64,000 bases of DNA, taken from Escherichia phage MN05. The position numbers and the translations under genes were made by a program. The notes below the pieces were generated by a model. The model did no database searches. It was not told where the DNA came from and saw nothing but the letters and a program-made list of their open reading frames with translations. This document shows positions 48,227-57,995 of the stretch, piece after piece. Position 1 is the stretch's first letter; each line of letters starts with the position of its first letter. The DNA is taken from sequence record NC_070987.1, one strand, 5' to 3'.

Positions 48227-48430
48227 TTAGTAGAACGAACGAATTTCATCCCACACTTGTTCCTGTTCTTTCCTATAAAAAGAAAGTTGGGTCTTGAACA
48301 TCTCCACTGATGATTCAAAGTTTTTAGATTGTGCAGCTTCAACGAAACGTTCATGTCGGTTGATTTTGCACCGTAGCATTAGATACTTGGCTTCAAGTCT
48401 CCGAAGAGCCTGTCTTTTCTCAAGATTCAC
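48227..48430 (-). CDS. hypothetical protein
   Basis: 67 aa ORF. Confidence 0.3.
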   Translation of the reverse strand: MNLEKRQALRRLEAKYLMLRCKINRHERFVEAAQSKNFESSVEMFKTQLSFYRKEQEQVWDEIRSFY

Positions 48431-48839
48431 TTTTCAGATACTCTGACCAGTCGCCAGATTCAACCAGAACGTCTTGTTCTTCGTCAATGTGATAAATCCA
48501 AGCGATAACAGTTTCACCTGAGTCCAGCTTAACGGCAATCTGGGTGCGTTGATAGAAGCTGTCTTCAGGGCTACGTTTGTTGTAACCTTCCAGTCGGTCA
48601 TATGGGCCTTCCAGACCTGCTTTGTCAGTAGCAAACACTTCTACACGAACAGGCTTATTGTTATTGCTGTGTGCGAGAGAGATGCTTGGGAAGTAGGAAC
48701 CACCATAACGGAACAGATCAAAGTTGTCTTCAGTCCAACCTTCACCAATTGACTTAGCACCAGCTCGGTCATTAACTAGATAGTTAGCTTGACCACGACG
48801 AAGAGAACCATAAGTTGCTACGTAAATTACTTCTGACAT
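48420..48839 (-). CDS. gamma-glutamyl cyclotransferase-like (AIG2/GGCT fold) protein
   Basis: 139 aa; N-terminal ATYGSLRRG and central PYDRLEGY resemble the YGSL motif and catalytic Glu context of GGCT-like enzymes. Confidence 0.55.
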   Translation of the reverse strand: MSEVIYVATYGSLRRGQANYLVNDRAGAKSIGEGWTEDNFDLFRYGGSYFPSISLAHSNNNKPVRVEVFATDKAGLEGPYDRLEGYNKRSPEDSFYQRTQIAVKLDSGETVIAWIYHIDEEQDVLVESGDWSEYLKSES

Positions 48840-48840
48840 T

Positions 48841-49050
48841 TTAAATACCTTTCCAGTCTTTCATGATGTTTTCAATATAAGCACACTGCTGATCAGTGGC
48901 TCCTGTTACAAACACTTCTAACCCCAACTGCTCGCAGAAGGGATTAAGAATCAATATTCTGGTTTGTCCGTATGAGTGATGCTCTCGGTAGATAACACAC
49001 CCGGCATCCCATACAGAGTCAATGGCTTTACTTAATCTTTCATGTTTCAT
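48841..49050 (-). CDS. hypothetical protein
   Basis: 69 aa ORF. Confidence 0.3.
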   Translation of the reverse strand: MKHERLSKAIDSVWDAGCVIYREHHSYGQTRILILNPFCEQLGLEVFVTGATDQQCAYIENIMKDWKGI

Positions 49051-49103
49051 AAAACCTCCAGTTTATCCGAACTAGCCTCCTCTTTCGAAGAGGCTAAAGC
49101 AGA

Positions 49104-49289
49104 TTACTCTGTAATAAAGATTTTAATCACACCGCAGATTGCTGCACTCTCAAACACTGCAACGGCTTCGCTTCCTTGAAAGAAGGCCACTTTGCCATCA
49201 GAGAAGTTAAACATGTCAGCATCGAGGTCCATAGCTCGCATTTCACCAGCGGCATTAGTGTCTTTAAACAGAACTTTATACTTATTCAC
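49104..49289 (-). CDS. hypothetical protein
   Basis: 61 aa ORF. Confidence 0.25.
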   Translation of the reverse strand: MNKYKVLFKDTNAAGEMRAMDLDADMFNFSDGKVAFFQGSEAVAVFESAAICGVIKIFITE

Positions 49290-55008: not shown

Positions 55009-55017
55009 GATAACCTC

Positions 55018-55824
55018 TTATGCTACCTGAAGGAGTTTGATCTGCTGGTCCGCTTCTTTAACGTTGTTACCGTTAATGATTTCATGAAGCTTCTCAATTG
55101 GAAGGCGAGAGTGCAATGCCATCAGAGTGGACATGTCACACTGCTGAACAACCTTGTCAACCTGATCGTAAACAAACTTACGATTTTCACGATCACTAAT
55201 CCAGAAGTTAGACAGCGAACGATATTCGATACCGTAGTCCTTATAACGGATTGCAGACGCTTTGCCATAAAGCTCTTTACGGCGAGTATCTTTGTCCATA
55301 ATTACTGCTGGGAGAGACAGGAAATAGTCACACAGCACACCAAGCATCATCTGAGTTTGCAGAGTGATATCCAAAGCACCAACCACTCCAAGATGTACGT
55401 GACCACCGGCAGTACGAAGCCCTTTATTCTGAGAAGTCGGGGATGGGTTCTTCTGACCAGTGAAAGCGTTGAAATCAGGAGTACATCCGAAGATGAACGC
55501 TGATTCGTTGAAAGTCTTCATCTCTTCTTCAGTGAAGATATGAGAGCTAACACCCGGAGCTGTTTCCATGTCCAGTTTGTTCAGGACATTATTGGTAAGA
55601 TCAATACCACGTTGCATGTTATCGTTAAACGCTTCAAAACCGCTCTGTGGGTCAATATCAAACTCAGCCAGTACATTGTCCTCTTGAAGACGAACATCCT
55701 TAGCCAGAGTGATCTTATCGTCCTTAGAACAACCTAACAGACCAGCCACAGAGGTGATGATGCCATTGCTGGTACGAACGAACATCTCGGGATCGCTCCC
55801 AATAAGGAATTTGCGCTTAGTCAT
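55018..55824 (-). CDS. second amidoligase-like protein (weak)
   Basis: 268 aa; FLIGSDPEMFV and TAGGHVHLGVV loosely parallel the GCS2-type motifs. Confidence 0.3.
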   Translation of the reverse strand: MTKRKFLIGSDPEMFVRTSNGIITSVAGLLGCSKDDKITLAKDVRLQEDNVLAEFDIDPQSGFEAFNDNMQRGIDLTNNVLNKLDMETAPGVSSHIFTEEEMKTFNESAFIFGCTPDFNAFTGQKNPSPTSQNKGLRTAGGHVHLGVVGALDITLQTQMMLGVLCDYFLSLPAVIMDKDTRRKELYGKASAIRYKDYGIEYRSLSNFWISDRENRKFVYDQVDKVVQQCDMSTLMALHSRLPIEKLHEIINGNNVKEADQQIKLLQVA

Positions 55825-56788
55825 TGTAATACTCCACTAGTTCAGAAAAGAGAGATGAGATTGTGTTACCAACTTCTTCAGTAGTAAGGCCAGAGCTTGG
55901 GCCAGTACGCTGAATTAGTCGGGCTGTAAAGTTTTGTACTGTAATGTTTTCCAACTTATTGTCTATTGCTTCACGTTTGTGACCATGACAGTTGGACCAG
56001 AGTCTTAACCACTCTGACATTGTTTCATACTCGTCCGGGTCTTGATCTTTAGCACGAGCAAATCTTCGTAAGGCATCTTGGTTATGGTTACGAACATAAC
56101 CATTCTCGTTGTCGCCAACACCGAAGAGGTTTTGAACCCATACTTGCTTCGTGTATTCATCAGAGTCTACAACCAAAGGAAGGAAGGCTGCTGCTGACAT
56201 ATTATTGTTGACAACAATAGATGTGCTCTCACTACTCCCATTGGCCCTTCCTCGTTGAGACCACCCACCGAAGAAGTCACGACCCAACCCAGCTAACACT
56301 AGAGCGATACCGATGCGTTTACGCTTCAGCCACTCTTCCCTGTCTTCAATTCCTTCTGCTAGGAAATCCATTCCACGATATTGCCCTTCCAGAATACTAC
56401 GAAAGAGCATAAGTCCTGTGAAGATCTGATCTGCTGGATGCTCACGAAGGTTGACAGCAACACTATTCGCTGAAGTGATCGTAAATACGTCACGATAGCA
56501 AGACATGGAGTTCATAATGTCTGCTGTTTCAACCAAGTTCTTTTCAATATCAGATGCAACATGACCATGAAAAGAGTGAGTCCAGTAATTCAACATCTCC
56601 AGTTGCAAGTTGATATCACGGTTGAAGCGACGATAGCGCCCCTCTTCCGTGATAACTTCACCATTAATGTCATTTACACACTGGCCTTGCATGTAGTTGT
56701 GGATACCGAAGCACCCACGACCTAAGAACTTCTGTTCCCCTAAATCCTGTTGAAGATTAAGAGGTACGATCGTTGTGGAGATTGACAT
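55817..56788 (-). CDS. hypothetical protein within amide-enzyme block
   Basis: 323 aa ORF. Confidence 0.3.
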   Translation of the reverse strand: MSISTTIVPLNLQQDLGEQKFLGRGCFGIHNYMQGQCVNDINGEVITEEGRYRRFNRDINLQLEMLNYWTHSFHGHVASDIEKNLVETADIMNSMSCYRDVFTITSANSVAVNLREHPADQIFTGLMLFRSILEGQYRGMDFLAEGIEDREEWLKRKRIGIALVLAGLGRDFFGGWSQRGRANGSSESTSIVVNNNMSAAAFLPLVVDSDEYTKQVWVQNLFGVGDNENGYVRNHNQDALRRFARAKDQDPDEYETMSEWLRLWSNCHGHKREAIDNKLENITVQNFTARLIQRTGPSSGLTTEEVGNTISSLFSELVEYYND

Positions 56789-56798
56789 AACTAACCTT

Positions 56799-57995
56799 TT
56801 ATTTTCCTAAAAATAATCCGCTCATAATACCATCCCACTCAGAGGATGGAATCACTGAATACACTGAACTTTGGTCCAGAGTTCCACTACTAAATCGTTG
56901 AACGATGTTATAGATGTTGAACAGATCTTTAGTCTCAGCACGAATGCCGTAGATTAGACTATTAGCTGTTCTTTCATCTTTAGACACTCGACGGGTAAAG
57001 TTAATCAGAAGGTTGTCACATTTCAGGATTTCTGATTCACTCTCTACTAAGTCGGGGTGCATCACCGGCAAGAACATCGAGTTATTAACTCGTAATTCTG
57101 CTGTTTCATCATTCTCATAATGAATCCACTTAAAATCTTCATCACGGAAATGACCACACCCATCTCTATATGACTGTTGACGCCAAGGCACTTGAAATGC
57201 TTCAGCATACTTATTAGCCATGCCAACTGTAAACAGCGACGCTGGGAAGATACAAGCATCCCAATCATTACCAACCAGAGTTGCTTTCGTTTCCCCTAAG
57301 AGGTTAGTGTAAGTGCTAACCATTCGTGAGTAAACATAAGCCTGAAGGATTGTCCAGCCTTCAACCAACCATTTATGGAGGAAGGTTTCAACTTGACTCT
57401 CTTCATCTTCACAATAGAAGGTTCGGTCTAACATCAAATAGAACAGACAACGATCAGCAGGGATATTCTCAGTTGCTACCCCCATAAAACCTTTATCGTG
57501 CCAGCGTAAACAGGAGGGACGATCTTTGTCCACAAATGCTTCCATAGCTTCCAGTACAGCACGAGGTGTGGTTCGATGCTCAGGGTTTTTGTCGTTCCAA
57601 CGTTCGATGTTGTTCTTAGGGGGCGTGTCTTCATCTTCATACGAACACCAACTTAAAGCTTCAGCTACATGCTTTTCATCACGCCAACGTCTAAAACCTA
57701 ACATCTTCATATGAGTTCCAGAGTTCCAGATATGCTTGATTTTACACATATCCATCTCTCGGCTTAACAGGAACTCTTCCCCATCAGCACTACGAACGTT
57801 AGCTTCTTCATGCCACACTCGAACGTGCATATTCCATCCATGAGTTGCCTCATACATGTTAGGGTCGAAGTAGTCATCATCTTCGTCGTCTTCATCAACG
57901 CCACCATTATAGTTGCGAAGCTGAAGGAACCCATAACAAGGAGGACTAACCGTTAAAACATTACCTTCAGTATCTTCTAATGTTACTGGAAACAT
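56799..57995 (-). CDS. hypothetical protein within amide-enzyme block
   Basis: 398 aa ORF; acidic N-terminal stretch. Confidence 0.3.
   Translation of the reverse strand: MFPVTLEDTEGNVLTVSPPCYGFLQLRNYNGGVDEDDEDDDYFDPNMYEATHGWNMHVRVWHEEANVRSADGEEFLLSREMDMCKIKHIWNSGTHMKMLGFRRWRDEKHVAEALSWCSYEDEDTPPKNNIERWNDKNPEHRTTPRAVLEAMEAFVDKDRPSCLRWHDKGFMGVATENIPADRCLFYLMLDRTFYCEDEESQVETFLHKWLVEGWTILQAYVYSRMVSTYTNLLGETKATLVGNDWDACIFPASLFTVGMANKYAEAFQVPWRQQSYRDGCGHFRDEDFKWIHYENDETAELRVNNSMFLPVMHPDLVESESEILKCDNLLINFTRRVSKDERTANSLIYGIRAETKDLFNIYNIVQRFSSGTLDQSSVYSVIPSSEWDGIMSGLFLGK

Follow-up and report, generated by a model that had tools for sequence, protein, structure and literature searches.

What does a virulent coliphage build, or take apart, with three amide-forming ligases, a glutamine amidotransferase and a gamma-glutamyl cyclotransferase encoded side by side? 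The question is raised by a block of about 9.6 kb in Escherichia phage MN05 (NC_070987.1), of which we analysed a stretch of 64,000 nucleotides (hereafter, the window). Our preferred answer, to which we give a probability of about 0.5, is a pathway of successive ATP-dependent amide ligations on an amine-bearing acceptor, with a gamma-glutamyl group as transient handle and glutamine as the source of ammonia. It builds on the observed enzyme families with their intact catalytic residues, on their expression and linkage, and on the complementary distribution of two gamma-glutamyl removers; from these we infer the order of reactions, the logic of the handle, the adaptor role of one accessory protein and the nature of the acceptor.

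The window comes from a Kuravirus (phiEco32-like) genome. The 14 genes of the block, which takes up about 12% of the 77-kb genome, are 95–100% identical to phi32_77–88 of coliphage phiEco32 (genus Kuravirus) and stand in the same order, with one addition, a 69-amino-acid (aa) open reading frame (ORF) at 48841–49050 that is not annotated in phiEco32. The 9.6-kb region aligned over its full length at 94.6–96.1% identity among the 25 records listed, with phage NJ01 at the top, and 64 phage records span at least 80% of it. A first-pass annotation, made from the letters and a list of ORFs, had placed the block at 48420–57995 on a single strand with tightly coupled genes. This description held: 48420 is the stop of the gene for a gamma-glutamylamine cyclotransferase (GGACT), 57995 is the start of a 398-aa ORF, all genes in the ORF listing between them run together on the minus strand, and the junctions are overlaps of 4–20 nucleotides (nt) or gaps of 1–10 nt, with two exceptions (gaps of 79 nt and 53 nt). 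In the order of transcription, the block reads as follows.

56799–57995, minus strand: unkA, 398 aa, phi32_88 homologue with an acidic N-terminal stretch
55817–56788, minus strand: unkB, 323 aa, phi32_87 homologue; its stop overlaps the start of the next gene by 8 nt
55018–55824, minus strand: COOH-NH2 ligase type 2, a carboxylate-amine ligase resembling GCS2 and glutamine synthetase (GS), phi32_86 homologue (PF14395)
54391–55008, minus strand: unkC, 205-aa core accessory protein, phi32_85 homologue; 4-nt overlap with the amidoligase gene
53291–54394, minus strand: Amidoligase_2, a GS/GCS2-like ATP-dependent carboxylate-amine ligase, phi32_84 homologue (PF12224)
53215–53244, minus strand: 9-codon mini-ORF MKGFTLQVD*, read directly from the sequence
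51181–53211, minus strand: class-II (Ntn) glutamine amidotransferase (GATase), 676 aa, phi32_83 homologue (GATase_6)
50945–51178, minus strand: 77-aa DUF7195 protein, phi32_82 homologue (PF23825)
50740–50964, minus strand: 74-aa ORF of no assigned function, phi32_81 homologue (PHROG 13464)
49541–50737, minus strand: ATP-grasp ligase, phi32_80 homologue, with fold-level matches
49286–49534, minus strand: gp79, 82 aa, 100% identical to phi32_79
49104–49289, minus strand: 61-aa ORF of no assigned function, phi32_78 homologue, annotated in relatives
48841–49050, minus strand: 69-aa ORF of no assigned function, NJ01_093 homologue, missing from the phiEco32 record
48420–48839, minus strand: GGACT/AIG2/YtfP-type gamma-glutamyl(amine) cyclotransferase, phi32_77 homologue (PF06094)

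Downstream of the GGACT gene lie a 67-aa ORF and then a primase/helicase gene.

Linkage across phages and the gamma-glutamyl remover

With an alignment of amidoligases as the seed, IMG/VR was scanned and 80 loci were recovered, with amidoligase identities as low as 25%. We clustered every ORF lying no more than 8 kb from the amidoligase gene and treated a locus as complete (n = 51) if that gene was flanked by 6 kb or more on each side. The three ligases and the GATase co-occurred in every complete viral locus: the ATP-grasp ligase was found in 51/51 (78–79 of all 80 loci), the COOH-NH2 ligase in 51/51 (72/80) and the GATase in 51/51 (70/80). An unkC-like protein was encoded between the two GS-like ligase genes in 62 of the 80 loci (41/51 complete), a primase/helicase was present in 69 (46/51 complete), and exonuclease/polymerase genes in 57.

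A common gene order, comprising two genes without assigned function, the COOH-NH2 ligase, a protein of about 200 aa, the amidoligase, the GATase, a small protein, the ATP-grasp ligase, GGACT and the primase/helicase, is kept in three syntenic phage groups, represented by phiEco32, Salmonella phage 7-11 (Grimontviridae) and Pseudomonas phage DL54 (Bruynoghevirus, LUZ24-like). Rearranged yet linked sets occur in Pseudoalteromonas phage HP1 and Xanthomonas phage DES1, while Arthrobacter phage LiSara and similar actinophage-like contigs carry a minimal trio of GGACT, Amidoligase_2 and GATase. GGACT is linked to ligases in all six named phages (phiEco32, 7-11, DL54, HP1, LiSara and DES1). The N-terminal domain of the GATase was found in 326 sequenced phage records, with Escherichia, Pseudomonas, Vibrio, Aeromonas, Arthrobacter and marine hosts, and the module is also present in many metagenomic viral contigs.

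Peptidase_C26 is a PuuD-like gamma-glutamyl hydrolase with the class-I GATase fold. Of the 80 loci, 42 have its gene immediately ahead of the one for the COOH-NH2 ligase (Pfam E = 1e-17 to 7e-21; for example, L030, L033 at 5583–6221, L036, L039 and 38 others), and in Kuravirus the slot that it takes in these distant modules is filled by unkB. GGACT, found in 32 of the 80 loci, is largely complementary to it. Among the complete loci, 24 had Peptidase_C26 only, 20 had GGACT only, 3 had both and 4 had neither; three of the last four are 7-11-like, and the GGACT gene of phage 7-11 itself lies just past 8 kb. Mutual exclusion gave a Fisher exact p = 1.7e-7 over the 51 loci, a statistic that ignores phylogeny. 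Nearly every module has one gamma-glutamyl remover, which either hydrolyses the group off or cyclises it to 5-oxoproline, and this near-universal presence of one or the other points to a gamma-glutamyl intermediate as a constant of the pathway.

The enzymes and their partners

Both GS-like ligases pass their Pfam cut-offs. The Amidoligase_2 protein scored 33.9 bits against PF12224 (curated cut-off 22) and matched PHROG 7469 with E = 3e-159; residues E31, E33, E58, H95, H97, R130, E186 and R188 are invariant in five lineages, leaving the catalytic constellation (E-x-E, E, H-x-H, R, E-x-R) intact. The COOH-NH2 ligase scored 34.1 bits against PF14395 (cut-off 25), a family that bears the name ‘phiEco32-like COOH-NH2 ligase type 2’, and matched PHROG 3815 with E = 3e-118; it is 49% identical to gp105 of phage 7-11 and 39% identical to gp50 of DL54. 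The first-pass count of ‘one or two’ GS/GCS2-like amidoligases can therefore be fixed at two. Its GGCT/AIG2-like assignment was borne out, with PF06094 matched at 63.8 bits (cut-off 22.8). The protein keeps the YGSL motif and the Glu within DRLEGY, and its nearest solved chains in the PDB are UPF0131 protein PH0828 and mammalian GGACT.

The ATP-grasp call stood at the level of the fold, through consistent matches (E = 3e-7 to 4e-3) of which none passed a curated cut-off. In NCBIfam, these were an MptN-type glutamate ligase (E = 3e-7), the RimK family (1e-6) and Ddl (4e-5), all far under their cut-offs; the Pfam matches (4e-3 and 8e-3) were under the gathering threshold, and those in the PDB were Ddl, alpha-L-glutamate ligase and RimK. 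Against the RimK models TIGR00768 and PRK10446, the protein reached 28.3 of 143.4 bits and 20.6 of 331 bits, respectively. Such scores support the fold and not RimK membership. Because the family cut-offs failed, the RefSeq name of this gene, ‘ribosomal protein S6 glutaminyl transferase’, should not, on the profile evidence, be taken literally. Across the block, no enzyme reached the curated NCBIfam cut-off of a housekeeping equivalog (GlmS, PurF, AsnB, RimK or Ddl). After the catalytic core (RimK/MptN/Ddl-like; approximately residues 1–265) come an acidic linker and a C-terminal domain of 82 aa; the protein belongs to PHROG 2599, with residues 317–398 forming the separate PHROG 20552. The linker (EEVEEEFDESAGDE...) and C-terminal domain (residues ~265–398) of the Kuravirus protein are both missing from distant orthologues of 250–290 aa.

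The GATase was listed as a 563-aa ORF, but its frame is open upstream as far as a TAG that lies 6 nt before an ATT (‘...TAG AAA ATT TGT GGC ATC’). Started at that ATT, the protein has 676 aa (53211 to 51181), with Cys1 encoded by TGT. Several lines of evidence mark the ATT as the real start: the GATase_6 (PF13522) score rises from 23.7 bits for the listed ORF to 55.1 at full length (cut-off 27), the PHROG and NCBIfam GlmS N-domain profiles match from residue 2, the orthologues of phages 7-11 and DL54 start ATG-TGT, and the phiEco32 RefSeq record uses the same ATT. The class-II assignment made in the first pass passes its cut-off once this N terminus is added. The Cys-rich C terminus noted there is also present, in a protein of 676 and not 563 aa: three CxxC zinc-ribbon-like motifs (residues ~440–670) come after a middle region that is variable. 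R86, T89, HNG and D of the GATase align with R73, T76, N98-G99 and D123 of GlmS (1xff), from which the enzyme is predicted to bind glutamine or a gamma-glutamyl moiety whose alpha-amino and alpha-carboxyl groups are free. Likeness to GlmS is confined to the N-terminal glutaminase domain (residues 2–194; 43 bits against a cut-off of 381), and profile searches of the GATase gave no match to a SIS isomerase domain. Its RefSeq name, ‘L-glutamine-D-fructose-6-phosphate aminotransferase’, is misleading. In 22 distant loci (for example, L037:2431–2646), a 70-aa protein with a CxxC...CxxC zinc ribbon and an acidic tail is encoded after the ATP-grasp gene; homology between it and the CxxC modules of the GATase was considered and not supported, the alignment being collinear but not significant (1.8% probability).

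The junction ahead of the GATase has features of its own. A 7-bp hairpin (GTGCCTC-TGATAAA-GGGGCAC, 53262–53282, minus strand) follows the amidoligase stop and precedes the mini-ORF, which holds a Shine–Dalgarno-like AGGTGGA and whose stop lies 3 nt before the ATT. Kuravirus-like loci share the 30 nt 5′ of the ATT exactly, even where their amidoligases are only 71–73% identical. In 68 related loci, the codon before Cys1 was ATG in 54, ATT in 8, TTG in 3 and GTG in 1, and the ATT loci (L010–L013, L017, L042, L071 and L080) include three non-Kuravirus lineages. By analogy with the AUU start of infC, the arrangement of mini-ORF and rare ATT start codon suggests that translation may be regulated here. 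In the records of NJ01 (NC_018835, NJ01_099) and Paul (MN045231, CPT_Paul_087), the GATase is begun at an internal Met and lacks Cys1, which creates a false ‘intergenic gap’ of 420 bp (52873–53211 in the window). An HNH homing-endonuclease gene (L093:10044–10469) lies between the amidoligase and GATase genes of one locus, at the junction that holds the hairpin and mini-ORF here, and phage PE006 (PQ812250) also has an HNH homing-endonuclease gene within the block.

Alongside the enzymes, the first-pass annotation had counted five further ORFs of at least 74 aa without recognisable motifs. There are in fact eight further ORFs (398, 323, 205, 82, 77, 74, 69 and 61 aa), and the 82-aa and 77-aa products are recognisable as gp79 and a DUF7195 protein. 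One of the larger ones, unkC, is modelled as two small SH3/Tudor/KOW-like beta-barrels around a flexible loop. This loop (residues 84–127, ESPDVGY...SWTHINPVRQRAKGL) has the lowest AlphaFold confidence and is yet the most conserved part of the family, with R106 and G111 kept in more than 90% of 79 sequences from three divergent subfamilies; judging from the model, it is likely to become ordered only when a partner binds. The unkC-like proteins were grouped by hhalign (unkC with c979, 87.5%; c979 with c1313, 98.8%). A ‘Rosetta stone’ reading of the HP1 COOH-NH2 ligase, with its N-terminal extension as an unkC fused to the enzyme, was not supported. Comparisons of unkA, unkB and unkC with PDB chains gave nothing usable, and NCBIfam and PADLOC were likewise empty. 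By hhalign, the three showed no relationship to each other or to either ligase family; unkA and unkB were considered as cryptic extra amidoligases or diverged Peptidase_C26 proteins, and no such relationship emerged. The unkA protein belongs to PHROG 13063, whose function is not annotated, and matched nothing in Pfam, NCBIfam, PADLOC or PDB sequences; its family has only 20 cluster representatives among 1.84 billion proteins, and it is present in 8 of the 80 related loci.

Among the small products, the 77-aa protein scored 61.9 bits against PF23825 (DUF7195; cut-off 27), and its gene is directly downstream of that for the GATase here, in phage 7-11 (gp101, 40% identity) and in a 111-kb metagenomic phage contig. 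The 74-aa family, to which phi32_81 belongs, occurs in only 6 of the 80 loci. The 82-aa ORF is identical to phiEco32 gp79, an RNA-polymerase-directed protein that inhibits sigma70-dependent transcription and activates transcription by the phage sigma factor (PMC8948821); gp79 is absent from phages 7-11 and GAP52 and is a passenger inside the block, not an enzyme of the pathway. PADLOC anti-phage defence profiles matched none of 10 block proteins (0 families).

As regards expression, proteomics of phage SU10 places the ATP-grasp enzyme, the GATase and YtfP-like proteins under ‘Early gene products’. We take the block to be a conserved, probably co-transcribed pathway of early or middle genes. 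A search of the coding strand for the phage-sigma promoter consensus gave no match inside the block; exact matches on that strand lie only downstream of it, at 38458–38466 and 31825–31833. A terminator-like hairpin with a T-run is found a short way upstream of the block (58551–58568, minus strand).

The proposed pathway and its acceptor

GS/GCS2-like and ATP-grasp ligases convert a carboxylate to an acyl-phosphate, which is then joined to an amine; class-II GATases either pass on the ammonia of glutamine or, as in EgtC, hydrolyse gamma-glutamyl amides; and the substrates of GGACT and Peptidase_C26 are gamma-glutamyl amines whose alpha-amino group is free. Ligases are paired with gamma-glutamyl removers in PuuA/PuuD, EgtA/EgtC, BtrJ/BtrG and GshA/GshB/ChaC. 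Because known pathways of this kind use the gamma-glutamyl group as a transient handle, we propose the same for the phage module. Amidoligase_2, the COOH-NH2 ligase and the RimK/MptN-like ATP-grasp enzyme would each form one amide bond at the expense of ATP. At least one of these ligations would add a gamma-glutamyl group, its alpha-amino group free, to serve as the handle, and the GATase would supply ammonia for amidating an activated carboxylate or would itself hydrolyse a gamma-glutamyl amide. The handle would later be removed, released here as 5-oxoproline by GGACT and in other lineages by the Peptidase_C26 hydrolase instead. The unkC protein could be a non-catalytic core subunit or adaptor for the two GS-like ligases. 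Our best guess for the acceptor is a small amine-bearing metabolite, polyamine-like or derived from an amino acid, rather than DNA. The first-pass reading had been broader, an amide-modification pathway acting on a protein, a nucleotide, a DNA base or a metabolite; in that breadth it is supported by the families and their linkage. Neither result that would have counted against it was obtained: the profiles did not fail to back the ATP-grasp (at fold level), GATase and amidoligase calls, and the genes did not prove unlinked in related genomes.

Several points weigh against the handle pathway. All its mechanistic steps derive from folds and gene context. The GATase, GGACT and Peptidase_C26 could all be gamma-glutamyl hydrolases, in which case the supply of ammonia would be unsupported. 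A few loci hold both GGACT and Peptidase_C26, which may not be strictly equivalent, and the Fisher test on their distribution takes no account of how the loci are related. A target among proteins or nucleic acids would suit the RimK-like enzyme, unkC, DUF7195 and the zinc ribbons equally well, and the adjacency to primase/helicase genes (46/51) is left unexplained by a generic metabolite pathway.

Were the target a protein, glutamate or a short peptide would be added to a host or phage protein in the manner of RimK, PafA or tubulin glutamylases, with GGACT and the GATase trimming or recycling the tag and unkC or DUF7195 as substrate or adaptor. The ATP-grasp enzyme is nearest to RimK/MptN-type alpha-L-glutamate ligases, the non-enzymatic unkC carries a conserved flexible loop, the DUF7195 gene adjoins the GATase gene, and the GS-like ligases of the Pup system do tag proteins. 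Nevertheless we hold this to be unlikely: the RimK-family cut-off was missed widely (28 against 143 bits), no Pup-ligase profile matched, the small ORFs end in SGS and KGI and not in Gly-Gly-Gln/Glu, the minimal actinophage trio lacks a conserved candidate substrate, the conserved residues of the unkC loop are Arg and Gly and not an acceptor Lys or Glu, and GGACT and Peptidase_C26 act on small gamma-glutamyl amines. Slightly more unlikely is that the ligases and GATase modify peptidoglycan or a wall precursor in the cytoplasm, perhaps by amidating it or attaching further amino acids in the way of MurT/GatD and Ddl, altering the cell surface and blocking superinfection by competing phages. The ATP-grasp protein does have D-Ala-D-Ala ligase among its best Pfam and PDB matches, and the pairing of a GATase with an ATP-dependent ligase mirrors MurT/GatD. 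Yet the profile matches of the block include no Mur ligase, transpeptidase or membrane-anchored component, and the module is placed with replication genes and not with those for lysis or the envelope. The gamma-glutamyl group on which GGACT and Peptidase_C26 depend must have its alpha-amine free, and the stem peptide of peptidoglycan offers no such group, and exclusion by wall remodelling would be slow for virulent phages with short infection cycles. The cell-wall proposal is credited to Iyer et al. (2009) in the citing passages of PMC10580990 and PMC11318856.

An amide-type hypermodification of phage DNA or of a nucleotide precursor, or a polyamine conjugate bound to DNA, would protect against restriction, and we consider it improbable. 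In its favour, primase/helicase genes are adjacent in 69/80 loci and exonuclease/polymerase genes in 57/80, the barrels of unkC and zinc ribbons are folds that frequently bind nucleic acids, viral contigs exist in which genes for thymidine hypermodification are found together with those for amidoligases and amidotransferases (PMC8989533), and Gordonclarkvirinae, which have no known modification pathway, are reported to be markedly resistant to restriction–modification systems. The content of restriction sites in the window (positions 1–64000, observed against expected) speaks on both sides. EcoRV sites (35 against 15) and CAGCAG (84 against 34) are enriched, but CCWGG (2 against 86), PstI (0 against 17), SacI (0 against 17), KpnI (0 against 7), GATC (148 against 264) and EcoRI (8 against 23) sites are depleted, and avoidance of CCWGG, PstI, SacI, KpnI and GATC implies DNA exposed to restriction. 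Moreover, BamHI cuts the DNA of a Bruynoghevirus, the genus of DL54 (PMC8540360), and the minimal trio is also found in actinophage contexts of temperate type. A 95%-identical relative is annotated with ThyX, a dCTP deaminase and a dNMP kinase, and its annotation includes no hydroxymethylase, 5-HMUDK, aGPT-Pplase, glycosylase-like transferase or TET/JBP. The bolder form of this idea, in which the module explains the restriction resistance of Gordonclarkvirinae through a novel amide-linked (gamma-glutamyl or peptidyl) modification of DNA or deoxynucleoside triphosphates, or a DNA-coating polyamine conjugate, made alongside replication, strikes us as very improbable; if true, it would account for the placement beside primase/helicase genes, the nucleic-acid-binding type of folds and the tolerance of EcoRV sites. 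Equally doubtful is a role in auxiliary metabolism, with host-like genes running a gamma-glutamyl or glutathione-type cycle or boosting nitrogen assimilation for replication. A GCS-like ligase, an ATP-grasp enzyme, a cyclotransferase and a glutaminase do make up the fold set of glutathione synthesis and turnover. The authors on OM43 phages count module genes as auxiliary metabolic genes, and the same gene set in ‘Phage-ZRK32’ was read as auxiliary genes of nitrogen metabolism, with growth stimulated by nitrate or ammonium (eLife 2024; PMC10945688); those growth data, however, do not test these genes. All housekeeping equivalog cut-offs were missed, the families are highly divergent and largely phage-restricted, and phage-only partners (unkC-like proteins and DUF7195) in fixed synteny favour a dedicated pathway.

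Relation to known systems

The module is already known: it has a 2009 description and its own Pfam family. Iyer, Abhiman, Burroughs and Aravind (Mol Biosyst 5:1636) set out the phiEco32-like amidoligase system from computational analysis, as cited in passages of PMC10580990 and PMC11318856, which confirms what the first-pass annotation had stated of similar neighbourhoods in phiEco32-type phages. It had named no biochemical characterisation, and our full-text literature searches found none. The block has the COOH-NH2 ligase, Amidoligase_2, a class-II GATase with Cys1, an operonic ATP-grasp enzyme, a linked GGACT and the conserved neighbourhood that mark a phiEco32-type module. New here are the ATT start with Cys1, the co-occurrence counts across loci, the GGACT-or-Peptidase_C26 pattern and the recognition of one ‘unknown’ ORF as gp79. 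If the module were solved, seven or more conserved families of phage genes would gain a function, and it would become clear whether, and why, phages run a biosynthesis with a gamma-glutamyl handle; Kuravirus relatives that infect E. coli K-12 exist (BASEL collection), so the function is testable.

The ligase family and Gly-Gly-Gln/Glu tag of PafA/Dop/Pup were not found among the proteins of the block, and the dUMP hydroxymethylase or TET/JBP, 5-HMUDK and aGPT-Pplase of thymidine-hypermodification clusters (Lee et al. 2018/2021) are absent from the annotation of the 95%-identical relative and from the Pfam matches of the block, to which the profile search was confined. With RimK, the best match among named families together with MptN, the module shares the ATP-grasp fold; unlike RimK, the phage enzyme also has an acidic linker and a C-terminal domain of 82 aa. 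MurT/GatD, the model behind the cell-wall hypothesis, likewise has an ATP-dependent ligase fed with ammonia by a separate glutaminase subunit, but MurT is a Mur ligase and GatD a class-I GATase, whereas the module has GS-like and ATP-grasp ligases and a class-II GATase.

Further comparisons are with pathways that handle gamma-glutamyl groups. BtrJ/BtrG of butirosin synthesis combine an ATP-grasp ligase with an AIG2/GGCT-fold enzyme around a transient gamma-glutamyl protecting group, a likeness of logic only; unlike that system, the block gave no sign of an acyl carrier protein or of a transferase of the BtrH type. The ergothioneine enzymes EgtA/EgtC share a GCS2-like ligase and an Ntn class-II GATase domain with the module, and the EgtC profile matches the block GATase with E = 2.5e-4, but at 20 bits against a cut-off of 219, and the module lacks EgtB, EgtD and EgtE homologues. 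In the putrescine pathway of E. coli, PuuA is a gamma-glutamyl-putrescine synthetase and PuuD a Peptidase_C26 gamma-glutamyl-GABA hydrolase. Unlike PuuA/PuuD, the window has GGACT in place of Peptidase_C26, its ligases are Amidoligase_2 and COOH-NH2_lig and not Gln-synt_C, and the module has no oxidase or dehydrogenase partners and adds two further ligases and a class-II GATase. In both systems, a GS-superfamily ligase is joined by a gamma-glutamyl remover, and in 42 of the 80 loci the remover inside the phage module is itself a Peptidase_C26.

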